Source of the DNA: an uncultured Verrucomicrobiota bacterium
Lineage (GTDB): Bacteria; Verrucomicrobiota; Kiritimatiellia; RFP12; UBA1067
DNA: 64,000 nucleotides
Assembly (NCBI GenBank): GCA_946533675.1
Contig: CAMNBZ010000013.1
Location: 2,391-66,390, forward strand
Reading direction: 5' to 3'
The notes below the pieces were generated by a model. That model saw only the letters and a list, made by a program, of their open reading frames with translations. It did no database searches and was not told where the DNA came from. How positions within the stretch are numbered: the stretch's first letter is position 1; each line of letters opens with the position of its first letter. The translations under genes and the position numbers were made by a program. This document shows, piece by piece, positions 7,754-58,804 of this stretch.

Positions 7754-10513
7754 ATGAAAAAAAGATTGTCAGCATGGGTCCCCGTGGCCCTGGCGATTGG
7801 CGGTGCGGCTCTGACGGCCGCCGCGCAGGAAATCGTCCCGAAAATCGTCCACCCCGTGATGCCGCCGTCGGTCATCCGCCCCGTCGATCCGCGCGCGGAC
7901 GAACAGCCGATCGCGATCGAGACGCAGGCGCGCGTCGTGGAGGAGAACGCCTTTTTCCGCCGCGTGCGCACCTCGTTTACCTTCACCAATCCGAACGCGC
8001 GGCAGATGGCCGGCGAACTGGAATTCCCGATCCCGGACGGCGCGCACGTGTGCGCCTACGCGCTCGACGTGAACGGCACGCTCGTGCCGGGCGTCGTCTG
8101 CGAGAAGGAGAAGGCGCGCGTCGCGTTCGAAAACGAAGTCCGCAAGGGCGTCGATCCCGGCCTCGTCGAGCAGGTGAAGGGCAACATCTGGAAGACGCGC
8201 ATCTTTCCGCTCGTCCCGCACACGCCGCGCCAGGCCGCGGTTGAATACGTCGCGCCGAAAACGGATGCGGCCGCGGTGTCCGAAACTGTCTACGAACGCG
8301 ACGGCGAGGATGTGTTTGCCGCCCGCGCGATGCTGGACGAGGCGGCGCCCGCGACGATCGCGCAGAAGATCGCCGCGTTCACAAAAGGCACGATCATCTG
8401 GGACGCCAGCCTGAGCGCGCAGCCGTTCGCCGCCGCGTGGCGCAAGAAGTTGGAGGCACTTCCCGAAAAAGGCGAGTGGGCGCTTGTCCTGTTCCGGAAC
8501 GATGTAATCGGCTACGCGAAGACGAACGGCTTCACGAAGGATTCGCTTCTGAAGCAGATAGACGAAATCGTGTACGACGGCGGCACGGACTTCAGCAAGA
8601 TTCGAGAGAGGCTGTCTCTCGGCAATGCAGACTTCCCGATGCCGGCACTGCTCTTCACGGATGAAATCGACACCCTCGGGCTTGAGAAACCGGACTACGA
8701 GTCAATCCCCGAACTTGTTATCGCCTCGCGCGACGACGTGCCTGTGCACGATGTCGTGGTGCGCAAGCTCGCGCCGGGCGAGACCCCGCCAGAGGGCGCG
8801 GCCGTGAAGGAAGGCCGTCTGCTCGCGACCGTCTGGGCGGCGCGGCGGATGCAGGATCTCGCATCGCAGGCGGACGCCCGCAAGGACGAGTTCCTCGCGC
8901 TCGGCCGCCGGTACGGCGTCGCGGGCCCGGGCCTTTCGCTCCTCGTCCTCGAAACGCTGGAGCAATGGCTGGAGCACAAGATCGAGCCGCCCGCGAACCT
9001 CGCCATCCACGACGAATGGGTGAAACGCCGCGCGGCCGAGGACGACCCCATCGCCGCGAAGAAGGCGAAAGCCGAGCACGAGCAGCAGCTGCTCCAGTAC
9101 TGGGAAGAGCGCGTTAAATGGTGGAACGATCCGAAGCCGCCCAAGTCGACGCCGAAGAGCGGACTCTTTGATGCCGTCGCACGGGCCGTGGGACTGGGCG
9201 CGAGCCGTCGCGACGCGGCTGCGGCGGTCAACGCGGAAGACGTGGCGTGTTGCGAGGAGGCCGCACTGGAGGAGGATGGCGTGATGGCTGCGGCGACCTC
9301 CGCCTCGGCGAGATACGTGCGGGCTGCGGCGAGCGCACCCGGGGCGATAGCTGCGGCGAGCGCACCCGGGGCGATAGAATCTGCCGCCGCCAACTCTCAA
9401 CTCTCCACTCTCAACTCTCAACTCCCCGTGGCCGTCACGCTCAAGGCGTGGGATCCGAAGACGCCGTATCTGGACGCGTTAAAGGCCGTTTCCAAGGGTG
9501 GTGCCGATGAAGCCTACAAAGTCTATCTAAGGGAGCGCGAGAAGTATGCCGATTCGCCCGCGTTCTACATCGACTGCGCGGGGTGGTTCTACAAGGCGGG
9601 CCGGCCGTTCGAGGCCGACCGCATCCTCACGAATCTCGCCGAGTTCAAGCTGGAGGACGCGGCGCTCTGGCGCGCGATGAGCTGGCGCGCCCGCGAGGCC
9701 GGCAGCTACGATCTTGCCGTCCTCGCGTTCCGCAAGGTGCTTGCGATGCGCGGCGAGGAGGCGCAGAGCCGCCGCGACCTGGCGCTCGTTCTCATGGAGC
9801 AGGCCAAGGCCGCGCTCTGCGACGGCGAGTGGGCGCGCGCGAGAGAGAAAGATGCGCAGGCGATCGCGCTCAGGAACTTCTACGATCCGTCCGACACGCC
9901 GGAAAGCCGGCTCAAGGGGAGGCTGGAAATCTCCCGCAAATGGCTTGAGGAGGCGATGCGCCTTTTCGCGGACGCGGCGTTCAACGTGAACGCGCGGCGC
10001 AGCGGACGGCGCGGCAACGACTTCCAGGTTTCCATTATCGCGCTCGAAGAGCTGAACGGGCTCATTGCGTGGGTGAACGCCGTCGACTGGCCCGACGGCA
10101 AGAAGCCCGCCGTGCCGGCGTTCGACGCCGCCTACCGCCGCGACCTGCCCGTGAAGCTCCGCATCGTCATGAGCTGGGACGCGGACGAGACCGATATCGA
10201 CCTGCACGTTCTCGAACCGAACGGCGAGGAGGCGTTCTACGGCCACCGCCGCACGGCCGAGGGCGGGTTCGTCTCGGAGGATGTCACGACGGGCTACGGC
10301 CCGGAGGAGTATTTGAAGAAGGAGCTGGAAAGTGGCGTCTACAAGGTGCTGACCAACTATTTCGCGTCGCACCAGACGGCGCTGACGGGCCCGGCGACGG
10401 TGACGGCGACCGTCTATACCGACTGGGGCACGGCCGCCGAAAAGCGCCAGGTCCTCACGCTCCGCCTCGACAAGCCGAAGGACAAGCAGCTGATCGGCGA
10501 AGTGAAACTCTAA
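7754..10513 (+). CDS. Secreted VIT-domain / TPR / DUF2135 (YfaP-like C-terminus) protein
   Basis: Signal peptide MKKRLSAW...AAAQ; VIT-like TSFTFTNPNARQMAGELEFPIPDGAHVCAYALDVNG; C-terminal LRIVMSWDADETDIDLHVLEPNGEE...DVTTGYGPEEY; start moved from 7517 to 7754. Confidence 0.8.
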   Translation: MKKRLSAWVPVALAIGGAALTAAAQEIVPKIVHPVMPPSVIRPVDPRADEQPIAIETQARVVEENAFFRRVRTSFTFTNPNARQMAGELEFPIPDGAHVCAYALDVNGTLVPGVVCEKEKARVAFENEVRKGVDPGLVEQVKGNIWKTRIFPLVPHTPRQAAVEYVAPKTDAAAVSETVYERDGEDVFAARAMLDEAAPATIAQKIAAFTKGTIIWDASLSAQPFAAAWRKKLEALPEKGEWALVLFRNDVIGYAKTNGFTKDSLLKQIDEIVYDGGTDFSKIRERLSLGNADFPMPALLFTDEIDTLGLEKPDYESIPELVIASRDDVPVHDVVVRKLAPGETPPEGAAVKEGRLLATVWAARRMQDLASQADARKDEFLALGRRYGVAGPGLSLLVLETLEQWLEHKIEPPANLAIHDEWVKRRAAEDDPIAAKKAKAEHEQQLLQYWEERVKWWNDPKPPKSTPKSGLFDAVARAVGLGASRRDAAAAVNAEDVACCEEAALEEDGVMAAATSASARYVRAAASAPGAIAAASAPGAIESAAANSQLSTLNSQLPVAVTLKAWDPKTPYLDALKAVSKGGADEAYKVYLREREKYADSPAFYIDCAGWFYKAGRPFEADRILTNLAEFKLEDAALWRAMSWRAREAGSYDLAVLAFRKVLAMRGEEAQSRRDLALVLMEQAKAALCDGEWARAREKDAQAIALRNFYDPSDTPESRLKGRLEISRKWLEEAMRLFADAAFNVNARRSGRRGNDFQVSIIALEELNGLIAWVNAVDWPDGKKPAVPAFDAAYRRDLPVKLRIVMSWDADETDIDLHVLEPNGEEAFYGHRRTAEGGFVSEDVTTGYGPEEYLKKELESGVYKVLTNYFASHQTALTGPATVTATVYTDWGTAAEKRQVLTLRLDKPKDKQLIGEVKL
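9391..9424 (+). repeat. In-frame (A/C)ACTCTC heptamer tract (encodes NSQLSTLNSQL)
   Basis: CAACTCTCAACTCTCCACTCTCAACTCTCAACTC; preceded by a 27-bp tandem duplication at 9323-9376 (AAASAPGAI x2). Confidence 0.9.
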
Positions 10514-13439: not shown

Positions 13440-13460
13440 GAAGTCTGAAGTCGGAAGTCC
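13440..13460 (+). repeat. GAAGTC(T/G/C) heptamer tract
   Basis: GAAGTCT GAAGTCG GAAGTCC; same family inside the REP hairpins at about 24.43-24.51 kb and 26.42-26.51 kb. Confidence 0.75.
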
Positions 13461-24246: not shown

Positions 24247-24616
24247 GAAATTTTTTCGCGCGATTTTCGTTTGTTAGGATTGAAGGGGGAAATAGGGCCT
24301 TCTTCCGCCGTGGCGCGGCGCCGGCGCGCTTGACAGCAAACGAAGATAAATGATAAGATAAAGGCAGAAAATGAAACTTGCGTGCGATGTCAATGTTGGT
24401 TGGGGTCTGTCCCCGCAAGGTTGGGCATCAGACTTCGGACTTCAGACTCCCAAGTTGAGGTCGAAGGGGAGGGCGTTGCAGTTTCGAAGTCTGAAGTCAG
24501 ATGTCCGAAGTCCTTCTCCCCAATTTGCGGGGACAGACCCCAGCTGAAAAGGCGATAATGTGTCAGAAAGGAGATTGAATGATGCAAAATGTAAATGTTG
24601 GTTGGGGTCTCTCCCC
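24247..24616 (+). repeat. Array unit A leader scaffold (promoters, REP hairpin, RBS/ATG head)
   Basis: Near-identical to 26242-26611 (offset 1995); TTGACA 24330-24335 / TGaTAAGAT to 24359; 18-bp perfect inverted repeat 24401-24418 / 24525-24542; ends in GGGGTCTCTCCCC 24604-24616. Confidence 0.92.
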
Positions 24617-25708: not shown

Positions 25709-26220
25709 AGTTTTGATAGACTGCTAGCCCTGATGAATCTGCGCGAGAATATGTCTGGAAGATGCCGCCGAGCCCGTCGGTCGGCACGTCAGCCATTTGT
25801 GCGCCATAATCCGGCGGGCCCGAACACGCATGTCCGTGATCGTGAACACGCATGTCCGCGTTCGTGAATACGCATGTTCGCGATTGTGAATACGCATGTT
25901 CGTGATTACGGGCGCGGTTCCCCTGTTTTTAATTAACTCCGAGCAGCTGGGCTTTCGTTACCACTTCGCGCAATTCGTTCTGCTTCGCATGTGAAATTGT
26001 TCTGTAGCTGATGAGAAATGTCTATTTGTGGCTGGAGGAGGTTTCCTTCCGACCACCTCGTGTCTGAAGGCGGGTCGTCTTACCTGCCGAAGGCAGCCTC
26101 TAAAGATGCTGACCCAACCTGAACAGCCGTTGAAAAACGCGAAGCGGCGGAGCGGTCGCGGGAGCCTAAACGCTCGGAGTTGATAAATGTCAATGTTGGC
26201 CGGGGTCCCACCGCAATTTT
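25709..26220 (+). repeat. Array unit A tail scaffold
   Basis: Near-identical to 27411-27945; contains four 22-bp repeats (25820-25907); ends in ATGTCAATGTTGGCCGGGGTCCCACCGCAATTTT. Confidence 0.92.
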
Positions 26221-26241: not shown

Positions 26242-26611
26242 GAAATCTTTTCGCGCGGTTTTCGTTTGTTAGGATTGAAGGGGGCGGCAGGGCCTTCTTC
26301 CGCCGTGGCGCGGCGCCCGCGCGCTTGACAGCAAACGAAGATAAATGATAAGATAAAGGCAGAAAATGAAACTTGCGTGCGATGTCAATGTTGGTTGGGG
26401 TCTGTCCCCGCAAGGTTGGGCATCAGACTTCGGACTTCAGACTCCCAAGTTGAGGTCGAAGGGGAGGGCGTTGCAGTTTCGAAGTCTGAAGTCAGATGTC
26501 CGAAGTCCTTCTCCCCAATTTGCGGGGACAGACCCCAGCTGAAAAGGCGATAATGCGTCAGAAAGGAGCCTAAACAATGAAAAATGTAAATGTCGGTTGG
26601 GGTCTCTCCCC
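26242..26611 (+). repeat. Array unit B leader scaffold
   Basis: TTGACA 26325-26330; REP pair 26397-26409 / 26524-26536; head ATG 26577 (MKNVNVGWGLSP); GGGGTCTCTCCCC 26599-26611. Confidence 0.92.
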
Positions 26612-27410: not shown

Positions 27411-27945
27411 AGTTTATGATACACTGCTAGCCATGATGAATCTGCGCGAGAGTATGTCTGGAAGATGCCGCCGAATCCGTCGGTTGGCACGTCAGCCATT
27501 TGTGCGACATAATTCTGCGGGTCCGAACACGCATGTCCGTGATCGTGAACACGCATGTCCGTGATCGTGAACACGCATGTCCGCGTTCGTGAATACGCAT
27601 GTTCGCGATTGTGAATACGCATGTTCGTGATTACGGGCGCGGTTCCCCTGTTTTTAATTAACTCCGAGCAGCTGGGCTTTCGTTACCACTTCGCGCAATT
27701 CGTTCTGCTTCGCATGTGAAATTGTTCTGTAGCTGATGAGAAATGTCTATTTGTGGCTGGAGGAGGTTTCCTTCCGACCACCTCGTGTCTGAAGGCGGGT
27801 CGTCTTACCTGCCGAAGGCAGCCTCTAAAGATGCTGACCCAACCTGAACAGCCGTTGAAAAACGCGAAGCGGCGGAGCGGTCGCGGGAGCCCAAACGCTC
27901 GGAGTTGATAAATGTCAATGTTGGTTGGGGCCCCACCGCAATTTT
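27411..27945 (+). repeat. Array unit B tail scaffold
   Basis: Five 22-bp repeats (27523-27632); ends in ATGTCAATGTTGGTTGGGGCCCCACCGCAATTTT. Confidence 0.92.
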
Positions 27946-27957
27946 TTTTCTAGAGGG

Positions 27958-28067
27958 GCTAGACCGCTCGCTTACGCGGGCTACGCTAGACCGCTCGCTT
28001 TGCTCGCTACGCTAGACCGCCCGCTTACGCGGGCTACGCTAGACTTCTAGAATAGCGAGCGGTCTAG
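27958..28067. repeat. Three 26-27 bp GCTAGACCGCTCGCTT...CTAC repeats plus an inverted partial copy
   Basis: Units 27958-27984, 27985-28010, 28011-28037; inverted AGCGAGCGGTCTAG at 28054-28067; related AGCGAGCGCTCTAGA at 13682. Confidence 0.85.
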
Positions 28068-28237
28068 ACCAGCGTGCAACGCGGCACAAATTCCTTTGCC
28101 CCGGCGGCGGTTGACTTTGGGGGAGCGATATGATAACATACGCCCCCGTTCGTCCGGAATAGGCGACTCTCCACGTGCGGGTGCACGACGGGAAGCAACG
28201 CCCCTTACGGATTCACTTGCGTCAAGGGTCACATGAA

Positions 28238-29689
28238 TTGTCTCACCTTACACAGCAAGCTACGCCTCTCGCGGAGGCGCTGAACGCGCAGCGGATCAAC
28301 CGTCTGGCGCATTTCGACGTGCCCGGCCACAAGGGCGGGCGCATGAACCCCGAGCTCCCCGAGTACTACGGACGCCTGTGCATGTCGCTCGACGTCAACT
28401 CGATGAAGCCGCTTGACAACCTGGGCCATCCCGTGGGCGTCATCCGGGACGCGCAGGCGCTCGCGGCGGAGGCGTTCGGCGCGGACCACGCCTTCTTCAT
28501 GGTGAACGGCACCACCTCCGCCGTCCAGACGATGATCTGGACGACGTGCGGCCGCGGCGAAAAGATCATCATGCCGCGCAACGTCCACCGCAGCGCCATC
28601 AACGCGCTCGTCATCAACGGCGCGATCCCCGTCTACGTCAACCCCGGGCGCAACGCGCGGCTCGGCATCCCGCTGGGGATGGGCGTGGAGGACGTGCAGC
28701 GCGCCATCGAGCAGCACCCCGACGCGAAGGCCATCCTCGTCAACAACCCGACGTACTACGGCGTGTGCTCCGACCTGGAGACGATCGTCTCCATCGCGCA
28801 CGCGGCGGGGATGAAGGTGCTGGCGGACGAGGCGCACGGCACGCACTTCTACTTCTCCGACAGGCTGCCGGTCTCGGGCATGGCGGCGGGCTGCGACATG
28901 GCGGCCGTCTCGCTCCACAAGACGGGCGGCTCGCTCACGCAGAGCTCGATCCTCCTCAGCCGGAACACGGTCAACCCCGACTACGTGCGCCAGATGATCA
29001 CGCTGACGCAGTCGACGAGCGCGAACTACCTGCTGCTGAGTTCGCTCGATCTCGCGCGCCGCCACCTGCACTTCCACGGCCGCGAGGTCTACGAAAAGAC
29101 CATCGCCTTCGCGGAGTACGCGCGCGAGGAGATCAACCGCCTCGGCGGCTACTACGCGTTCGGCCCCGAGATCTGCAACGGCGACACGTGCTTCGCGTTC
29201 GACCTGACGAAGCTGTCGGTCCACACGCGCGACATCGGGCAGGCCGGCATCGAGGTGTACGACCTGCTCCGCGACGACTACGGCATCCAGATCGAGTTCG
29301 GCGACGTCGGCAACATCCTCGCCATCATCTCGGCGGGCGACCGCCGCATGGACGTCGAGCGGCTCATCTCCGCGCTCGCCGAGATCAAGCGCCTGCACCG
29401 CAAGGATCCCGTCGGCCTCTTCGACCACGAATACATCGACCCCGACGTCGCCATGACGCCCGAGGCCGCGTTCGTCGCGCAGAAGGAGACGGTGCCGCTG
29501 CGGGCGTCGCTCGGCCGCGTCGCCGGCGAATTCGTGATGAGCTATCCGCCCGGCATCCCGATTCTCGCGCCGGGCGAGCGCGTCACGCCCGACATCCTCG
29601 AACACATCGAATTCACCAAGGCCAAGGGCTGCTTCATGACCGGCCCCCTGGACATGGCGCTCAACAACCTGCAGGTCGTTGTGAGTTGA
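28238..29689 (+). CDS. PLP-dependent Orn/Lys/Arg decarboxylase (probably arginine decarboxylase by context)
   Basis: FDVPGHKGG, VNGTTSA, PRNVHRS, ADEAHG, SLHKTGG, SYPPGIP; TTG start 28238 inferred (track start 28175). Confidence 0.9.
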   Translation: MSHLTQQATPLAEALNAQRINRLAHFDVPGHKGGRMNPELPEYYGRLCMSLDVNSMKPLDNLGHPVGVIRDAQALAAEAFGADHAFFMVNGTTSAVQTMIWTTCGRGEKIIMPRNVHRSAINALVINGAIPVYVNPGRNARLGIPLGMGVEDVQRAIEQHPDAKAILVNNPTYYGVCSDLETIVSIAHAAGMKVLADEAHGTHFYFSDRLPVSGMAAGCDMAAVSLHKTGGSLTQSSILLSRNTVNPDYVRQMITLTQSTSANYLLLSSLDLARRHLHFHGREVYEKTIAFAEYAREEINRLGGYYAFGPEICNGDTCFAFDLTKLSVHTRDIGQAGIEVYDLLRDDYGIQIEFGDVGNILAIISAGDRRMDVERLISALAEIKRLHRKDPVGLFDHEYIDPDVAMTPEAAFVAQKETVPLRASLGRVAGEFVMSYPPGIPILAPGERVTPDILEHIEFTKAKGCFMTGPLDMALNNLQVVVS

Positions 29690-29718
29690 GAGTGGAGAAT
29701 GGAGAGTGGAGAGTTGAG
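29684..29718 (+). repeat. G-rich heptamer array (left arm), 5 units
   Basis: AGTTGAG AGTGGAG AATGGAG AGTGGAG AGTTGAG; contains the TGA stop of the decarboxylase. Confidence 0.92.
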
Positions 29719-29757
29719 CGTGGCGTGTCACAACTTGAGAATGGAGGGCGAGGCAGG

Positions 29758-30117
29758 ATGAGGGAAAGCATCATTGCAGACAAGAGTTATGCCTTGGCCG
29801 TCAGGGTCGTCAGGCTGAACCGGCATTTGGCGGAGAAGAAAAAAGAGTTCGTCCTGAGCAAGCAGCTCTTGCGTGCCGGCACGAGCATCGGCGCCAATGT
29901 CCGCGAAGGGCAGGAGGGGCAGAGCAAGGCCGATTTCGTCAACAAGTTCAGCATTGCGCTCAAGGAGTGCGGCGAGACGCTGTATTGGCTGGATCTCTTG
30001 CACGATACCGGATTCCTGACGGATCGGCAGTACCGCTCCATTTGCGATGATTGCATTGAAGTGAAGAAACTGCTCGTCTCGATCGTCAAGACTTCCCGCT
30101 CCCGCCTCCCGCACTAA
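29758..30117 (+). CDS. Four-helix-bundle protein (23S rRNA intervening-sequence protein family)
   Basis: DKSYALAVRVV, LSKQLLRAGTSIGANVREG, SKADFVNKFSIALKECGETLYWL; 119 aa. Confidence 0.92.
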   Translation: MRESIIADKSYALAVRVVRLNRHLAEKKKEFVLSKQLLRAGTSIGANVREGQEGQSKADFVNKFSIALKECGETLYWLDLLHDTGFLTDRQYRSICDDCIEVKKLLVSIVKTSRSRLPH

Positions 30118-30213
30118 CTCTCCACTCTCAACTTTCAACTTTCAACTCTCAACTCTCCACTCTCAACTTTCAACTCTCAACTCTCCACTCTCAACTTTCA
30201 ACTCTCAACTCTC
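30116..30213 (+). repeat. C-rich heptamer array (right arm), 14 units
   Basis: 14 x (A/C)ACT(C/T)TC from the TAA of the four-helix gene up to 1 nt before the speE ATG; reverse complement of the left arm. Confidence 0.95.
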
Positions 30214-30214
30214 C

Positions 30215-31060
30215 ATGGAACTGTGGTACACCGACAAGCATACGGAGGACGTGCGCTTCTCCGTCAAGGTCAAGCGGCAGCTCGCCTCGCACAAGAGCGA
30301 GATCCAGCAGATCGACATCCTCGACACGTGCGGCTTCGGGCGCGTCCTGGTCCTCGACGGCGAGCTGATGATCACCGAGAAGGACGAGTTCATCTACCAT
30401 GAGATGCTCACGCACGTGCCGATGGCGGTCCATCCCAACGTGGAGACGGTGCTCGTCGTCGGCGGCGGCGACGGCGGCACGGTGCGCGAACTCGCGAAGT
30501 ACCCGTCCATCCGCGAAATCGATCTCGTCGAGGCCGACAAGGAGGTGGTGACGCTCTCGTCCATCCACCTGCCGTTCACGGCGTGCAAGCTGCGCGACCC
30601 GCGCGTGCGGCTCCACTTCGAGGATGGCCTGCGGTTCGTGCGCGGCAAGAAGGACGCATACGATCTCATCATCGTCGACTGCCCCGATCCCTACGGCCCC
30701 GCCGAGGGCCTCTTCACGCGCGAGTTCTACGGCAACTGCTGCAACGCGCTCAAGGAGGACGGCATCCTCATCAACCAGCACGAGTCGCCGTTCTACGCCG
30801 CGCACCAGACGAGCGTCAAGAACGCCCACGCGCACATCGCGATCGAGTTCCCCGTCTCGACCGTCTACCAGTGCCACATCCCGAGCTATCCGTCGGGCCA
30901 CTGGCTCTTCGGCTTCGCGTCGCTCAAGTACGATCCCGTGCGCGACCTCGACGCGGCGCGCTGGAACGCGCTCGGCATCGCCGCGCGCTACTACAACACC
31001 GACCTCCACCGCGGCGCGTTCGCGCTGCCCAACTACGTCAAGGAGCTCCTGAACCGATGA
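30215..31060 (+). CDS. speE: Polyamine aminopropyltransferase (spermidine synthase)
   Basis: DEFIYHEML, VLVVGGGDGG, IIVDCPDP, IPSYPSGHW. Confidence 0.93.
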   Translation: MELWYTDKHTEDVRFSVKVKRQLASHKSEIQQIDILDTCGFGRVLVLDGELMITEKDEFIYHEMLTHVPMAVHPNVETVLVVGGGDGGTVRELAKYPSIREIDLVEADKEVVTLSSIHLPFTACKLRDPRVRLHFEDGLRFVRGKKDAYDLIIVDCPDPYGPAEGLFTREFYGNCCNALKEDGILINQHESPFYAAHQTSVKNAHAHIAIEFPVSTVYQCHIPSYPSGHWLFGFASLKYDPVRDLDAARWNALGIAARYYNTDLHRGAFALPNYVKELLNR

Positions 31061-31902
31061 ACTTCATCGCCGCTGACGCATCCTTCGCGGACGCTGCGGT
31101 CGTCCTCTTCGGCGCACCGTACGATTCGACGACGAGCTTCCGCCCCGGCACGCGCTTCGGGCCCGCCGCGCTGCGCTCGGAGTCGTTCGGCATCGAAACG
31201 TATTCGCCGTATCAGGACCGCGACCTCGAAACCGACGTGCGCGTCCACGACGCGGGCGACCTGGAGCTGCCGTTCGGTGCGCCCGAGCGCGCGCTGGCGA
31301 TGATCGAGGCGCAGGCCGCGGCGATCCTGGACGCGGGCAAGGTGCCGTTCCTCCTCGGCGGCGAACACCTCGTCACGCTCGGCGCGGTGCGCGCGGCCGC
31401 GCGCAAGCACCCGGACCTGCGCATCCTCCACTTCGACGCGCACGCCGATCTGCGCGAGGATTACCTCGGCGTGACGCTCTCGCACGCCTGCGTCCTGCGC
31501 CGCTGCCACGACCTGCTCGGCGACGGCCGCATCTGGCAGTTCGGCATCCGCTCGGGAACGCGCGACGAGTTCGCGTTCATGAAGGCGGGCCGTGTGACGA
31601 CCGAGCCGTTCGCCGACGCGACGCTGCCGGCCGTCCTCGACGCGATCGGGCCCGACGCGCCCGTCTATCTCACGATCGACCTCGACGTCCTCGACCCGGC
31701 GGAGTTCCCCGGCACGGGCACGCCCGAGGCGGGCGGCTTCAGCTTCCTCCGGCTGCTGGGCGACATCCGCCGGATCTGCGCGCGGCTGCATGTCGTCGCG
31801 CTCGACAACGTGGAGCTCGCGCCGACGCTCGACCCGACGGGCCGCTCCACCGCGCTCGCCTGCAAGCTCCTGCGCGAAGAGCTGCTGGCACTCAAGGTTT
31901 GA
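31057..31902 (+). CDS. speB: Agmatinase
   Basis: GAPYDSTTSFRPGTRFGP, LGGEHL, HFDAHADL, TIDLDVLDPAEFPGTGTPEAGG. Confidence 0.93.
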   Translation: MNFIAADASFADAAVVLFGAPYDSTTSFRPGTRFGPAALRSESFGIETYSPYQDRDLETDVRVHDAGDLELPFGAPERALAMIEAQAAAILDAGKVPFLLGGEHLVTLGAVRAAARKHPDLRILHFDAHADLREDYLGVTLSHACVLRRCHDLLGDGRIWQFGIRSGTRDEFAFMKAGRVTTEPFADATLPAVLDAIGPDAPVYLTIDLDVLDPAEFPGTGTPEAGGFSFLRLLGDIRRICARLHVVALDNVELAPTLDPTGRSTALACKLLREELLALKV

Positions 31903-31924: not shown

Positions 31925-33267
<1,343 letters not shown>

Positions 33268-33268
<1 letters not shown>

Positions 33269-34470
33269 TGCCGCGCTACGTGATCGACGAGGCGGCGCTC
33301 CGGCGCAATCTGACGGTTCTGAAGGGCGTCGCGGACCGCACGGGAGCCCGGATTCTCCTCGCGCAGAAGGCGTTTTCGTGCGCGGCGACGTACCCGCTCT
33401 GCGCGCAGTATCTCGCGGGCACGACGGCGAGCTCGCTTTTCGAGGCGCGCCACGGCCACGACAATTTCGGCGGCGAGACGCACGTCTTCGCACCCGCGTT
33501 CGTGCCGGAGGAGATGGAGGAGCTGCTGGGGCTCGTCGATCATATCGTCTTCAATTCGCCGCGTCAGGTTGCGCTCTACGGCGAGAGGGCGCGCGCGCGC
33601 GGCGTGTCGGCGGGGCTTCGGGTGAATCCCGAGGTCTCCGTCGCGACGACGCCCGCGTACGATCCGTGCCGTCCGTCGTCGCGTCTCGGCACCCGACGCG
33701 CCGACCTCGACGCGCAACTTTCAACTTTCAGCTCTCCACTTTCAACTCTCTCGGGTTTGCATTTCCACTGCCTGTGCGAGCAGGGCGTGGCGGAGCTGCA
33801 GAAAGTCCTGGCGGGGTTCGAGGAAAAGTTCGGCGACCTGCTGCCGCAGATGGAATGGGTGAATTTCGGCGGCGGCCACCACATCACGCGCGCGGACTAC
33901 GACGTAGACGGGCTCGTCGCGCTCCTGAACGATTTCCGTCGCCGCCATCCGCATCTGACGGTCTATCTGGAGCCGGGCGAGGCGGTGGCGCTCAACGCGG
34001 GCACGCTCGAAGCGCGCGTCCTCGAAATCCAGCCGCGCGGCGCGGACGGGATCGCGAACGCGATTCTCGATACGAGCGCGGCGTGCCACATGCCGGACGT
34101 GCTCGAAATGCCGTACACACCGCGGGTGAGAGTTGAGAGTGGAGAGTGGAGAATGGAGAGTGGGGAAAGGAGTCCGGATAGTGGTCAGGCTGTCAACTCT
34201 CAATTCTCAACTCTCAACTCTCAACTCTTCACCTATCGTTTCGGCGGGCCGACGTGTCTGGCGGGCGACGAGATCGGCGTCTACGCGTTCGCGCGTCCGC
34301 TCCACGCGGGCGACACGGTCGTCTTCGAGGACATGGCGATCTACTCGATGGTGAAGAACAACACGTTCAACGGCGTCAACCTGCCGGACATCGCCCTGCG
34401 GCATGAAGACGGGACGGTCGAGACGCTGCGCGCCTTCGGCTACGCCGACTTCGCCGCCCGCCTCGGCTGA
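33268..34470 (+). CDS. nspC: Carboxynorspermidine/carboxyspermidine decarboxylase
   Basis: LLAQKAFS, TTASSLFEA, GLHFHCLCEQ, NFGGGHHIT, YLEPGEA, TCLAGD, YSMVKNNTFNG. Confidence 0.92.
34128..34228. repeat. In-frame inverted heptamer mini-element inside nspC
   Basis: G-rich arm 34128-34163, 30-bp spacer, C-rich arm 34194-34228. Confidence 0.9.
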
Positions 34471-34768: not shown

Positions 34769-36235
34769 ATGTCGTTCTGGTCAAGCACAAAAGATGTCCT
34801 TTCGGGGCGGCGCCCGGTCGGCGCTGTTCTCGGCGCCGCCGTCAAGGGCTATCGCACGATCCGCGTCGCGGTCATGGGTTCCAAGGCGAGCGGCAAGACC
34901 GTCTTTCTGACCGCGCTCGCCAGCCATCTTCAGGATCATCGCCCGACGGAGTTCCCGCTGGGCGGCCGGATCGTCACGTGGGACAGAGACGCGATTTCCG
35001 GCGAGACGCTGCATGGTCTGCCGCGCTTCAGCTACGAAGAGGCGCGCGCGTTCCTGGCCAGGGGCGAATGGCCCGCCAAGACGACGGCGACCTCGATTCT
35101 GGCCCTGCGGCTGCTGATCGAGGACAAGACGGGCCGTCAGGAGAACGTGCAGCTCGAGGTCGTTGACATCCCGGGCGAGCGGATCGCCGATTTCGCGATG
35201 AAGGGGCGCTCGTACAGATCGTGGTGCCGGTGGATGCAGCGGGAATCCGCGACGCCGGCGTACACCGCGTACGTCGACGCCGTCAAGAAGGCGGGGCCGG
35301 ACGATGCAGAGCCGCTCTTCGCGGCCTATCGCGACTTCCTCGCGCAGGAGTACGTGAACGGTGCGCCCTGCATCACGCCGTCGGCGGTCAAGCTGGGGAT
35401 CGACGGCGAAAAGCGCGGCGGGTCGCCGGCCGCATTCCGGGCGGCGATCGATTCCGTTCCCGTCGGTTTCACGGACGGCAAAGGGCGCGTCTGGGACTTC
35501 GTGCCGCTGCCCGAATCGTGTTTCGAGAAGGGGTCGCCGTGGCACGGTCTGATCAAGCGGTTTGCGCGCGGCTACGACAGGTATGTCGCGACGGTCGTGC
35601 GGCCGATCGCCGACTGGATGGCGGGCGCGGAGAAGCTGTTCTATCTCGTCGACATGCTGTCCCTGCTCCAGCAGGGGGCGAAGGCCTGCGACTCGGAACG
35701 GCAGTACGGCGAAGCGGCGATCGGCGCGCTGTGCCCGCGCAGGGGCTCGGCGCTGCGCCGCCTCGGACGCTGGGCGTCGGGCGTGCTGTGGCAGACGCGC
35801 ATCCGCGCCGTCTATGTCGTGACGACCAAGGCCGACTGCGTCTGGTCCCGGACGAATCGCGACAATCTGGTCCTGCTGGCGGATGCGCTGCTGGGGCGCG
35901 CGCTCCGGTGCGTGGACCGCACGCGCGTGTCGACGTGCATCCTGCCCTGCGCGGCCGTGTGCAGCACCAAGGAGCGGACCGACGGGCAGCCGGGGCTGCA
36001 GGGCCCGATCCCGGATCCGGCGCAGCCCGACGCGCGGCCGGCGCTGAAGAAATGGCGGCCGTCCGACGTGCCGGCCGTCTGGCCGCGCTCGTCCGAGGAA
36101 TGGGAGGCGGCCATCGCGGACGGGACGTTCAACTACCCGTTCGCGTTCCCGTGGTTCGACGCGGCGCAGATCTGCCTGCCGCGGCAGCTGAATCTGGACA
36201 TCCTGGCCGAGGCCCTGCTCGCGCGGGAAGACTGA
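34769..36235 (+). CDS. ycjX: YcjX-family P-loop NTPase
   Basis: IRVAVMGSKASGKTVFLTAL, EVVDIPGERIADF, VVTTKAD, C-terminal QLNLDILAEALL; paired with a ycjF-like gene. Confidence 0.75.
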   Translation: MSFWSSTKDVLSGRRPVGAVLGAAVKGYRTIRVAVMGSKASGKTVFLTALASHLQDHRPTEFPLGGRIVTWDRDAISGETLHGLPRFSYEEARAFLARGEWPAKTTATSILALRLLIEDKTGRQENVQLEVVDIPGERIADFAMKGRSYRSWCRWMQRESATPAYTAYVDAVKKAGPDDAEPLFAAYRDFLAQEYVNGAPCITPSAVKLGIDGEKRGGSPAAFRAAIDSVPVGFTDGKGRVWDFVPLPESCFEKGSPWHGLIKRFARGYDRYVATVVRPIADWMAGAEKLFYLVDMLSLLQQGAKACDSERQYGEAAIGALCPRRGSALRRLGRWASGVLWQTRIRAVYVVTTKADCVWSRTNRDNLVLLADALLGRALRCVDRTRVSTCILPCAAVCSTKERTDGQPGLQGPIPDPAQPDARPALKKWRPSDVPAVWPRSSEEWEAAIADGTFNYPFAFPWFDAAQICLPRQLNLDILAEALLARED

Positions 36236-36252
36236 AGGAAGGGAGGTCGACG

Positions 36253-37260
36253 ATGGCGTACGAAGTCGAGCGGCGGCAGGGCGGATGCGACATCCGGCGT
36301 CCGGCGCCCCCGCCCGTTTTTCAGGAGGACGAGGCGCGTTACGAGGATGTTGCCGCGCGCGAGGGCGGCCGTCTGCGGCTGGACGGCGGCGGGGGCGTCG
36401 GCCGGGCGGCGCCGCGTGACGAACGGGCGGGCGGCCTCTTTGCGTTTCTCGGCGGATGCGTCGCGGCGCTGGTCGCCGTGTGGGTCTACTCCGTGTCCGC
36501 GCCGTTTCTGGCCGCGGCGCTCACGCTGCACGGCTGGCGGCTGTGGGTGTCGGTTGCGCTCGCCTGCGCCCCGGCGCTTCTGGTGCTCGCGCTGCTGGCG
36601 TCCGCGCTCGTGCGGCTGCGCCGGCTGCCGCGCCTGGTCCAGCTGGAGGCGGACGCGTTCACGAACAAGGCCGAGCTGCAGCGGCTGCTGGCGGACGCGT
36701 ATCTCGCCCGGTTCCCCGATCCGGAGCGCTATGCGGCCGACAACGGCTTCGCCGGTGGCGCGGGCGACCGCGCGCGCCAGGAGGTCGTCGGCTGCCTGCG
36801 TCGGCTGCGCGGGACGGTGGCGGACAGCCGCGGCTGGCTGATCGAGTTCGCGCGCTTCCAGGAGCTGCAGGACGGCCGGGCGAAGGAGATCGTCGCGCAG
36901 GCGTGGAAGCTGGTGGCGATCAAGACGGCGGCCTCGCCGTGGAAGATCGTCGACATGCTGGCGGTCATCTACAATTCCACGGTGATGATCGTGCGGCTCG
37001 CCCGGCTGTACAACCGGCGCGTGTCGCGTCCGGCGGCGTTCCGTCTGGCGTGCCGGTGGATCGTGAACATCTACATCGCGGGCGAGATGGGGGATGCGAC
37101 GCAGGGCGCGGTGGAATGGGCGGGCGCCAACGAGCTGATCTCGGCGACGTACAAGCCGCTGGCGGGGCTTGTCGGCAAGGTGGCGGAAGGCGGGGCCAAT
37201 GCGTTCCTGGTTTATCGCCTGGGGCTCCGCGCGATGGACGCATTCCGCCCGCTTCGGTAA
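36253..37260 (+). CDS. ycjF: YcjF-family (DUF697) membrane protein
   Basis: Two N-terminal TM segments; TAASPWKIVDMLAVIYNSTVMIVRLARLY; AFLVYRLGLRAM. Confidence 0.75.
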   Translation: MAYEVERRQGGCDIRRPAPPPVFQEDEARYEDVAAREGGRLRLDGGGGVGRAAPRDERAGGLFAFLGGCVAALVAVWVYSVSAPFLAAALTLHGWRLWVSVALACAPALLVLALLASALVRLRRLPRLVQLEADAFTNKAELQRLLADAYLARFPDPERYAADNGFAGGAGDRARQEVVGCLRRLRGTVADSRGWLIEFARFQELQDGRAKEIVAQAWKLVAIKTAASPWKIVDMLAVIYNSTVMIVRLARLYNRRVSRPAAFRLACRWIVNIYIAGEMGDATQGAVEWAGANELISATYKPLAGLVGKVAEGGANAFLVYRLGLRAMDAFRPLR

Positions 37261-48791: not shown

Positions 48792-48819
48792 CCACGAACC
48801 ACGAATCACGAAACGCGAA
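48792..48819 (+). repeat. CACGAA heptamer tract before the ATPase gene
   Basis: CCACGAA CCACGAA TCACGAA ACGCGAA. Confidence 0.7.
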
Positions 48820-48824
48820 CTGCC

Positions 48825-49685
48825 ATGTCTGAAACACTGCTCAAGATCGAAAACCTCACGAAGAGCTTCGGCGAGCTCGAGGTGCTGAAGGGACTCTCGA
48901 CCGAGATCCGCAAGGGCGAGGTCGTGGTGATGATCGGTCCGTCCGGCGGCGGCAAGTCGACCTTCCTCCGCTGCATGAACCTGCTGGAGCGGCCGACGGG
49001 AGGATCGATCATCTTCGACGGGATCGACATCGTCCAGGCGGACGAGAAGACGAAAAACCGCGTCCGCAGCGAGATGGGCATGGTGTTCCAGCACTTCAAC
49101 CTGTTCCCGCACCTGACGATCCTCGACAACATCACGCTCGCGCCGAAGCTCGTGCGCGGCGTGTCCGCCGCGGACGCCGAGAAGAAGGCGAGGGAGCTCT
49201 TGAAGCTGGTCGGCCTCGCCGACAAGGCGAAGGCGTATCCGCAGCAGCTCTCCGGCGGGCAGAAGCAGCGCGTCGCGATCGTGCGCTCGCTCGCGATGGA
49301 GCCGAAGGTGATGCTGTTCGACGAGCCGACGTCCGCGCTCGATCCCGAGATGGTCGGCGAGGTGCTCGACGTCATGAAGGATCTCGCGAAGGACGGCATG
49401 ACGATGGTCGTCGTCACGCACGAGATGCGCTTCGCGCGCGACGTCGCCACGCGCGTCCTGTTCCTCGAGGGCGGCCGGATCGCCGCGGAAGGGACGCCGG
49501 CGGCGATTTTCGACGGACGGCACGACGGCCGCCTCGGCGAGTTCCTGGGCAAGGTGCGCGTCGGCACCGAATTCCGCGACAAGGTCAAGTCCGAGCTCTT
49601 CGACATCCTGAAGGACCGCGAGGTTTCCGAGGAGGAGCTCGCGCGGCTCAAGGATCTGCTCGCCGGCGGCGCGCCGGCGACGTGA
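48825..49685 (+). CDS. Polar amino-acid ABC transporter ATP-binding protein (GlnQ-like)
   Basis: [34 protein letters not shown]; about 40-aa C-terminal extension. Confidence 0.93.
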
Positions 49686-57970: not shown

Positions 57971-57984
57971 CCCTTTTCTCCTCC

Positions 57985-58043
57985 CTCTCCACTCTCCACT
58001 CTCAACTTTCCACTCTCAACTCTCCACTCTCCACTCTCAACTC
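57985..58043 (-). repeat. Heptamer array at the thiG-thiH junction (about 8 units)
   Basis: ACT(C/T)TC(A/C) repeats; on the coding strand AGT-TGA provides the thiG stop. Confidence 0.92.
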
Positions 58044-58804
58044 CCAAAGATGTCCGCCGGGCTGGTCGCGTGCGCCTGCGCGCTCGCGCGCGGCGGCCGC
58101 GCCTCCCGCGCCCGTTCCGCCGCGCGGACGGCGAGTTTGAAGGCTTCCGCCATCTTGACCGGATCGCCGGCCGCGGCGACGGCGGTGTTGGCCAGGACCG
58201 CGTCCGCGCCGATCTCGATCGCCTCCGCCGCGTGGCTGGGCAGTCCGATGCCGGCGTCGACCACGACCGGCACGCGGCTCTGCTCGACGATGATCTCGAT
58301 CATGTCGCGCGTGCGGAGGCCGCGGTTGGAGCCGATCGGCGCGCCGAGCGGCATGACCGCCGCCGCGCCGGCCTCCTCGCAGCGGCGCGCGAGGACGGGA
58401 TCGGCGTTGATGTACGGCAGGACGACCATCCCCAGCTTCGCGCAGGCGCGCACGGCGGCCAGCGTCTCCACCGGGTCCGGCAGCAGGTAGCGCGCGTCGG
58501 GGTGGATCTCGATCTTCAGCCAGGTGAAGCCGGCGGCCCGGCCGATCTGCGCGATGCGCACGGCCTCGTCGGCGTTCCGCGCGCCGGACGTGTTCAGCAT
58601 GACTTCGATGCGGTCGCGGTCGATCGCCCGGAGGATGTCGTCGCCGGCCGCGTCGCGTTCATGCGCGCGCGTCAGCGCGACGGTGACGAGCTCCGTCTCG
58701 CTCGCGGCGAGCGCGGCCCGCGTCTGTTCGCTCGACGCGAACTTGCCCGTGCCCAGAAAGAAACGGCTGGTGAACGATCTGTTGGCGATGACAAGCGGTT
58801 TCAT
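58037..58804 (-). CDS. thiG: Thiazole synthase
   Basis: [43 protein letters not shown]. Confidence 0.96.

Follow-up and report, generated by a model that had tools for sequence, protein, structure and literature searches.

How does a conserved metabolic enzyme come to carry a strong hairpin-forming simple repeat within its reading frame, and what kind of element is this repeat? We addressed this question for nspC, the gene for carboxynorspermidine decarboxylase and the final gene of a polyamine operon, in a 64,000-nt stretch of DNA (hereafter the window) from an uncultured Verrucomicrobiota bacterium (contig CAMNBZ010000013.1). The gene contains an insert (34124-34233) made of a G-rich arm, a short spacer and a C-rich arm, which an initial annotation had interpreted as the gene-less miniature of a four-helix-bundle (4HB) element located elsewhere in the same operon. 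That annotation had proposed a non-autonomous derivative resembling a miniature inverted-repeat transposable element (MITE), tolerated as a peptide insertion in the manner of Rickettsia palindromic elements (RPEs). In this study, we analyzed the structure, reading frame, variation and genomic distribution of the insert, and examined the flanks of 4HB genes from several phyla. We consider it likely that the insert is an inverted pair of fast-evolving heptamer arrays, translated within a permissive loop of NspC, rather than a defined MITE.

Structure and folding of the nspC insert

The description of a G-rich arm, a spacer of about 30 bp and a C-rich arm at 34128-34228 was borne out by our analysis, with a spacer of 29 nt (Table 1). 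Each arm comprises 33 nt and the two are 91% complementary, with pairing that reaches outward to GGTGA (34124) and TCACC (34233) and gives a structure of 110 nt overall. Tandem Repeats Finder reported a period of 7 with 5.1 copies per arm, and the match between units in the arrays was 89-93%, indicating imperfect heptamers. The predicted RNA fold of positions 34118-34240 had a free energy of -62.1 kcal/mol, compared with -37.0 +/- 3.9 for shuffled sequences (z = -6.4; none of 200 shuffles was as good), and its stem is built of 6-bp blocks, with a single G.A mismatch in each unit interrupting the pairing. The insert was found to recur in independent assemblies and metagenomes and is therefore not an assembly artefact. 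A scan of this insert and of the full 4HB element against Rfam revealed no rRNA and only sub-threshold matches to microRNA-precursor hairpins (33 bits, where the gathering score is 100); we regard these matches as chance resemblance of shape and rejected a known RNA family as the identity of the insert.

Reading frame and variation of the insert among strains

Translation agreed with the initial annotation that the insert keeps the frame: it encodes RVRVESGEWRMESGERSPDSGQAVNSQFSTLNSQLFT, flanked by EMPYTP and YRFGGPTCLAGD, and the predicted tryptic peptides of the region are MESGER and SPDSGQAVNSQFSTLNSQLFTYR. In a strain with 97% amino acid identity (L081) the insert is shorter by 21 nt, which corresponds to exactly three units of the G arm, and in another with 94% identity (L082) it is shorter by 54 nt, with the spacer missing along with some of the C arm. 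Close strains differ within the insert solely by multiples of three nucleotides. The 21-nt variant was also present in two of four gut metagenomes (X2 and X3), and no out-of-frame variant was observed either in the strains or in the assembled contigs of these four metagenomes, although contigs hide rare alleles. Because close strains differ only by indels of 21 or 54 nt, the insert segment is most likely translated by read-through.

A second variable site of NspC (33715-33750) showed a related pattern, in that the loop lengths of homologues cluster in two series with steps of seven residues (17/24/31 and 21/28/35 amino acids); judging by sequence, these series look like the expected outcome of unit slippage filtered for frame. 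The composition of the G arms was also examined. An exact complement of the C arm (AGAGTTG repeated) would bring TGA into each of the three frames in succession. Coding G arms instead contain GTG and ATG variants, and the one unit of the NspC G arm with TTGA is out of frame. Avoidance of stops as the sole reason for GTG-type units was rejected, since the G arm of the 4HB element shows the same bias although it is mostly non-coding.

The gene that carries the insert is a full-length gene and not a pseudogene. The encoded protein matched the NspC structure PDB 9eaf with an E-value of 9e-124 (other matched NspC structures were 36gy, 3n29 and 3mt1), all of the 120 homologues analyzed were full length, and the active-site motifs of the pyridoxal phosphate fold (AQKAF, GGGHH, EPGEA, CHMPD and GGPTCLAGD) were invariant in a 39-sequence alignment that included the window protein. 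The match to TIGR01047 (E = 4e-122; model positions 4-380) scored 407.3 bits and narrowly missed the curated cut-off of 409.05. The repeat insertions probably push a genuine NspC slightly below the NCBIfam equivalog naming cut-off, and such lowering of the score under the NCBI naming threshold constitutes a practical annotation hazard.

The insert loop of NspC

The loop that bears the insert has 37 residues in the window versus 14 (PVAGASKGPCGPYA) in L001, the nearest repeat-free genome (a rumen metagenome-assembled genome named 'Verrucomicrobia bacterium', 73% identity). In the alignment to PDB 9eaf, 27 query residues stand opposite 4 of the solved chain and the insert lies between aligned blocks. 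The initial annotation had described this loop as normally shorter, and both comparisons agree with it. Across 120 homologues the length of the insert loop ranges from 11 to 50 amino acids. Compared with L001, the net gain is only 69 nt (23 amino acids) for a structure of about 110 nt; therefore, about 30 nt of the native loop were replaced, and not merely interrupted. Mapping on an AlphaFold2 (AF2) model, which the initial annotation had suggested as a check, showed a low-confidence segment in the loop (residues 295-317; predicted local distance difference test, pLDDT, below 50) that has no secondary structure and lies between the strands 287-289 and 321-326. The insert loop is thus predicted to be a disordered, permissive site of NspC.

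In relatives with 75-84% identity, the same loop bears other repeats of 7-residue periodicity, each based on a heptamer of its own (L084 to L087 in Table 1), and it is a clade-wide hot spot for heptamer arrays. Four CCACGAA units, which represent the same heptamer as the NspC-loop array of L087, were also found in the window at 48792-48820, just 5' of an ATG at 48825.

The heptamer array as the repeated entity

Using the two-unit pattern CAACTCTCAACTCTC with up to three mismatches, we identified 47 overlapping matches in the window (1.1 expected), which fall into nine array sites. Most arrays of this CAACTCT-type family in the window are solitary, and solitary arrays outnumber paired ones. They occupy coding as well as intergenic positions, including two sites in the gene for carboxynorspermidine synthase (Table 1). 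In the four gut metagenomes, the C arm was covered at 1000-2600 times and the G arm at 20-120 times the depth of the single-copy flanks, whereas the 29-nt spacer, which is also unique in the window, remained at baseline depth and occurred exclusively on the nspC contig. Given arms at 20-2600 times and a spacer at baseline, together with arrays that are mostly solitary, the repeated entity is the heptamer array and not a defined 100-bp transposable element.

The arrays change faster than their surroundings. The array at 33715-33750 shows many differences between L081 and the window within identical flanks, and at another locus (L088) a 4HB gene 100% identical to that of the window is accompanied by a C arm that is ordered differently. 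In L086, the array at the 33715-33750 site consists of CAACTAC units, as do four further arrays of the same locus, a pattern that hints at within-genome homogenization of heptamer units. We also considered whether each genome holds a single heptamer family in concerted evolution; only L086 clearly fits this idea and other relatives hold several families, so it remains a suggestion.

A second family of gene-less hairpins was observed at 24396-24542 and 26391-26537, where inverted heptamer arms (TCAGACT/CGAAGTC) lie within an outer inverted repeat (GGGGTCTGTCCCCGCAA...). The two copies have a predicted fold of -80 kcal/mol (z = -6.6), are near-identical and 2 kb apart, and each is located 5' of a gene, in an apparent segmental duplication. 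The same unit was also detected at 13440-13459.

The full 4HB element in the polyamine operon

The same heptamer family frames a 4HB gene in the operon (29683-30213), with an arm order (G arm, then C arm) identical to that of the NspC insert; on this point the initial annotation was right, including its remark that the insert lacks the gene. The 4HB gene is the sole member of its family in the window, its closest solved structure is 2rld, and the arms of the element pair with each other around the open reading frame (ORF) in the predicted fold (z = -4.9). An empty site for the element, clean and free of heptamers, was found in strain L081 (...GTGGTCGTCTGACAATGGAACTG...), in which the decarboxylase stop codon is followed two bases on by the speE start codon, and a clean empty site was also found in L086. 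The whole 29684-30214 segment is absent in both, and about 531 bp, comprising arm, gene and arm, are present or absent as a unit. No target-site duplication was visible when the full element was compared with the empty site. The 4HB element is a discrete, apparently mobile module of G arm, 4HB gene and C arm. The stop codon of the upstream decarboxylase (29687-29689) lies inside the G arm, and the C-terminus reads ...QVVVS* in the window and ...QVVV* in L081.

Comparison of the NspC spacer with the interior of the 4HB element revealed no significant similarity: the best local match (11 of 12 nt) was equalled by 39 of 500 shuffles, and we rejected this match as evidence for descent of the spacer from the interior of the element.

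Heptamer arms at other 4HB genes

To see how general this arrangement is, we examined 200 nt on each side of the 4HB gene at 31 distinct loci from several phyla, comprising 12 plasmid loci, 16 IMG/VR loci and 2 metagenome loci besides that of the window. A metagenome scan with the 4HB protein had given four loci and was replaced by a tblastn search of plasmids (33 matching records, of which 12 were examined) and by a profile search of IMG/VR viral contigs, which yielded 19 loci, 16 of them used. The plasmid sources were Nostoc, Anabaena, Planktothrix, Euhalothece, Gloeocapsa, Pseudanabaena, two Cytophagales, Treponema, Monoglobus and Chlorohelix.

The best tandem period was 7 in 26 of the 31 upstream flanks and in equally many downstream flanks, and in 24 of the 31 loci the two flanks were mutually inverted-complementary (z >= 4); a period of 8 was found in one locus and no tandem repeat in three. 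A stricter detector found period-7 arrays in 13 of 15 4HB loci and no array of period 5, 6, 8 or 9, and the background amounted to 8 period-7 arrays when 870 kb of unrelated bacterial loci were scanned. Four loci are exceptions to the heptamer pattern. The 4HB gene of L112 is accompanied by inverted arrays whose period is 8. In L114, L118 and L120, dispersed CCTTCAC or ATTTCAC motifs with small GC-rich hairpins between them, and no tandem units, lie 5' of the gene.

The heptamer unit varies by locus and weakly tracks the protein (Mantel r = 0.24, p = 0.002; L089 and L093, which have stops in their 4HB frames, were excluded from the protein alignment and from this test). This covariation does not prove specificity, as it is driven largely by close pairs and is compatible with simple co-inheritance. 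An AACTTTC unit is common to the 4HB loci of the window and L116 (50% identity), and an AAAATCY unit to the Gloeocapsa and Chlorohelix copies (69% identity, different phyla); such shared units are compatible with arms that would be inherited along with the 4HB gene. The 4HB genes of L096 (a Treponema saccharophilum plasmid) and L116 (an IMG/VR contig) are 44-50% identical to that of the window and have nearly the same arm unit (CCGCTCT/CCACTCT in L096, CAACTTT/CAACTCT in L116); L096 belongs to another phylum than the window and carries a GTGAAAG-type array upstream as well.

The 4HB genes are often located between genes of one operon, such as hsdS/hsdR, cas2/cas1, adaptor/permease genes of the resistance-nodulation-division type and DUF1156/Swt1-HEPN. 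Copies with heptamer arms inside defence or transport operons were seen in L093, L103, L102, L100, L101 and L094, one of which adjoins cas1, and the DUF1156/Swt1-HEPN placement occurs in a cyanobacterium as well as in a plasmid of Chloroflexota.

Weighing the explanations

In the explanation that we favor, the insert is an inverted pair of arrays (CAACTCT and its complement) of the type known as short tandemly repeated repetitive (STRR) sequences, placed around a locus-unique spacer. It would be transcribed together with nspC, ribosomes would translate it without a break, and the enzyme would tolerate the roughly 23 extra residues. The arrays themselves would be fast-evolving selfish or neutral simple repeats that gain, lose and swap 7-nt units, and in coding arrays only stop-free changes that keep the frame (21 nt, i.e. 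three units or seven residues) would survive. The NspC pair may then be seen as a gene-less sibling of the 4HB module, consisting of two oppositely oriented arrays of one family. We infer both translation of the insert and its tolerance by the enzyme; an in-frame peptide insertion resembling the RPEs, as proposed in the initial annotation, is most likely in view of the variable loop and the frame-keeping variants.

Several points weigh against this explanation. The AF2 model of NspC is mediocre (mean pLDDT of 68), and because of this the surface exposure of the loop rests on the alignment together with the low confidence of the loop. Assembled contigs from four metatranscriptome runs matched only repeat arms from other loci or organisms and none spanned the insert, which makes these runs uninformative. 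A hairpin of -62 kcal/mol within a coding region could carry a regulatory cost or role, and seven of the nine family arrays cluster within one 5-kb operon, which this explanation does not account for. Finally, the shared arm order could mean descent from the 4HB element by loss of the gene, and the 29-nt spacer is too short to count against this.

According to the MITE-like reading, a non-autonomous deletion derivative of the 4HB element was inserted in nspC as a unit and mobilized in trans. It would account for a heptamer family and arm order shared with the full element, and for terminal inverted repeats on a short gene-less element; furthermore, close strains either have the full element or lack it as a whole, indicating that it moves or is lost precisely, and other gene-less inverted heptamer pairs are found both in the window (24396-24542 and 26391-26537) and in Xanthomonas (PMC4692102). 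However, a mobile unit should exist in multiple near-identical whole copies, whereas the spacer occurs once in the window and as a single copy in four metagenomes, and its resemblance to the interior of the 4HB element is not significant. The flanks of the insert (ACACCGCGG and TATCGTTTC) share no direct repeat, so that no target-site duplication is seen, and about 30 nt of native loop were replaced, without a clean interruption. Moreover, the same site in relatives holds other heptamer units in single or direct arrays, solitary arrays are commoner than pairs, and the only product encoded inside the full element is a PF05635 helical bundle, not a transposase. We thus consider this part of the initial annotation unlikely.

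A regulatory function of the arrays appears considerably less probable still. The arrays could act on nspC either as a contingency locus, switched on and off by 7-nt slippage, or through an mRNA hairpin that tunes translation or decay, and the high stability of the hairpin, the presence of seven arrays in one polyamine operon and the established use of coding heptanucleotide repeats as a phase-variation device (as in neuO) are in line with such a role. However, the imperfect units would damp slippage, only in-frame length variants were seen in strains and metagenome contigs (which hide rare alleles), the inverted arrangement is often absent at the same site in relatives, and the same arrays also occur in unrelated genes and intergenic DNA. 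Least credible of all is excision of the hairpin from the transcript by RNase III, as in the intervening sequences of 23S rRNA, followed by rejoining of the mRNA, in which case the insert would never be translated. To our knowledge, no rejoining takes place after RNase III has cut out intervening sequences. Removal of the insert from the mRNA would leave nothing to maintain its frame and its freedom from stops, whereas all variants differ by multiples of three and in-frame TGA is avoided in coding G arms. In favor of excision are the stem-loop form shared with intervening sequences and the discovery of the 4HB family in RNase III-excised rRNA intervening sequences (bioRxiv 10.1101/2024.02.27.582315).

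Other features of the window

The coordinates of the insert, the full 4HB element, the solitary arrays and the genes of the polyamine operon are collected in Table 1, together with the arrays that occupy the insert loop in relatives.

Table 1. Repeat arrays, 4HB element and polyamine genes of the window, and heptamer arrays of the NspC insert loop in related genomes
Feature	Position	Strand	Remarks
nspC, carboxynorspermidine decarboxylase, 400 aa, host of the insert	33268..34470	+	TIGR01047, PDB 9eaf, PF00278
G-rich arm of insert	34124..34163 (heptamers 34128-34163)	+	five tandem heptamers (GAGAGTT, GAGAGTG x3, GAGAATG) and outer GGTGA; encodes VRVESGEWRMES
Spacer of insert, hairpin loop	34164..34192	+	locus-specific, 29 nt; encodes about GERSPDSGQA
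C-rich arm of insert	34193..34233 (heptamers 34193-34228)	+	five tandem heptamers (CAACTCT/CAATTCT) and outer TCACC; encodes NSQFSTLNSQLFT
Solitary C-type array in nspC, second variable site	33715..33750	+	in frame (QLSTFSSPLSTL); ~6 aa longer than PDB 9eaf
Solitary C-type array in carboxynorspermidine synthase	32108..32143	+	in frame (FSTLDSQLST); in 19-aa insertion vs PDB 4rl6
Solitary G-type array in carboxynorspermidine synthase	32588..32614	+	in frame (LKVESGES); in ~28-aa insertion vs PDB 4rl6
Solitary C-type array in VIT-domain protein	9391..9426	+	in frame (NSQLSTLNSQL)
Solitary array between thiG and ThiH-like radical-SAM gene	57981..58045	+	nine heptamers
Orn/Lys/Arg decarboxylase	28175-29689		polyamine operon
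G-rich arm of full 4HB element	29683..29723	+	supplies stop codon of upstream decarboxylase
4HB protein gene, 119 aa	29758..30117	+	23S rRNA intervening-sequence protein family; PF05635 E 2e-30; TIGR02436 E 2e-33; PDB 2rld E 2e-38
C-rich arm of full 4HB element	30116..30213	+	14 heptamers; ends at speE start codon
speE	30215-31060		polyamine operon
Agmatinase-like gene, between speE and synthase	about 31060-31900		polyamine operon; putative, after the Arginase-family gene at that place in strain L081
Carboxynorspermidine synthase	31925-33268		polyamine operon
Heptamer array of L084	same NspC loop		TTCCCCG; direct arrays around small hairpin
Heptamer array of L085	same NspC loop		GTGAAAG; with short complementary arm
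Heptamer array of L086	same NspC loop		AAAATGT; single array
Heptamer array of L087	same NspC loop		CACGAAC; about 17 units, in frame

Several tandem repeats of other periods were also found in the window. Repeats of 22 nt (GAACACGCATGTCCGCGATCGT; 3.9 and 4.9 copies) and 27 nt (3.3 copies) occupy 25822-25906, 27525-27631 and 27958-28044, and a cluster of 38-, 27-, 13- and 9-nt repeats lies at 76-315, 5' of a 1972-aa ORF that starts at 378. In the gene for the VIT-domain protein, an exact 27-nt tandem duplication (9323-9377; AASAPGAI twice) is in frame directly 5' of the array at 9391-9426. On the 3' side of nspC, a pair of YcjX-like (DUF463) and DUF697 genes (34772-37260) is present in the window and in L081; strains L082 and L083 are without this pair and have a GH20 gene directly after nspC, which amounts to a strain-level indel of about 2.7 kb.

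Implications

The insert in NspC demonstrates that a conserved metabolic enzyme can bear a strong hairpin-forming simple repeat in frame, apparently over long evolutionary time, and it marks a permissive loop of this enzyme. For decades, catalogues of heptamer repeats have been compiled for cyanobacteria, Xanthomonas, Geobacter and Beggiatoaceae with neither origin nor function established, and 4HB proteins are very common and uncharacterized. In our sample, heptamer arrays and 4HB genes usually occur together as one unit, and this unit is strain-variable, which brings two puzzles into one testable hypothesis. We tentatively raise the possibility, on balance a doubtful one, that the 4HB module is the source of bacterial STRR-type heptamer repeats: the protein would recognize or process its own 7-nt array, and the module would seed arrays into intergenic DNA and into permissive loops such as that of NspC. 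Any causal role of the 4HB protein in the spreading of arrays is our inference. If true, it would provide both an origin for long-unexplained heptamer repeats and a function for a very common 'hypothetical' protein.

Comparison with known repeat systems

RPEs are palindromic repeats located in frame in protein genes of Rickettsia, and share with the NspC insert a hairpin-forming repeat within a conserved protein gene that is tolerated in a loop and kept open by selection. However, RPEs are defined elements of about 100-150 bp that are repeated whole within Rickettsia, whereas only 7-nt arrays recur here; the center of the NspC insert is unique and its arms change length unit by unit. The phase-variable repeats of neuO in Escherichia coli K1 are likewise tandem coding heptamers that encode heptad peptides and give a full-length protein only with multiples of three units. 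They are perfect, located at the 5' end and switch frequently, whereas the NspC repeats are imperfect, lie in an internal loop and are partly palindromic, with no off-frame alleles seen.

The full 4HB element resembles the intervening sequences of 23S rRNA, with or without a PF05635 ORF, in that a stem formed by complementary flanks encloses the 4HB gene; the gene-less version is a hairpin of about 100 nt in both cases, and a sporadic distribution suggests horizontal transfer. Unlike intervening sequences, which are located in rRNA helices 25 or 45, both copies described here belong to a protein-coding operon, and conservation of frame in the NspC copy argues against the RNase III excision that intervening sequences undergo. 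Similar to REPIN-RAYT systems and MITEs, short hairpin doublets are scattered in the genome, a gene is flanked by the same repeats and the full element is strain-variable. Nevertheless, RAYTs are transposases of the IS200/IS605 type, whereas the flanked gene here belongs to TIGR02436/PF05635, is closest to PDB 2rld and has no recognizable transposase or nuclease domain; in addition, there is no target-site duplication and the small element is not a conserved multi-copy unit.

The closest likeness is to STRR-type repeats. These comprise TAACTGA repeats in Beggiatoaceae, cyanobacteria and Bacteroidetes, with translated cases in the stop-free orientation (PMC4679880), GGGAATC repeats of Xanthomonas and GGGGAYT repeats of Nostoc, for which arrays in coding regions were noted (PMC4692102), and the intergenic and intragenic GGACCGG repeats of Geobacter (PMC2700814). 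The shared features are tandem 7-nt units at many loci per genome with lineage-specific units, a mostly intergenic location with additional arrays within genes, in stop-free orientation, as 7-residue repeats, and convergent inverted pairs, of which 70 were reported in X. campestris (PMC4692102); no function or spreading mechanism is known. The NspC insert likewise has head-to-tail 7-nt units, many dispersed loci and whole-unit length changes between strains. The PF05635 domain is still termed functionally uncharacterized (bioRxiv 10.1101/2024.02.27.582315), and the three papers on heptamer repeats (PMC4679880, PMC4692102 and PMC2700814) do not mention the four-helix-bundle/S23 family. A full-text search found no published link of heptamer repeats to PF05635/TIGR02436, although its coverage is incomplete and this is no proof of novelty. 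Heptamer repeats, inverted pairs and in-frame palindromic inserts have already been described, and the link to the 4HB gene is the part for which we found no report. In contrast with the STRRs described to date, an inverted pair lies here in frame in a conserved enzyme, in a loop that bears arrays across a whole clade, and the arrays also serve as the arms of a 4HB gene module.

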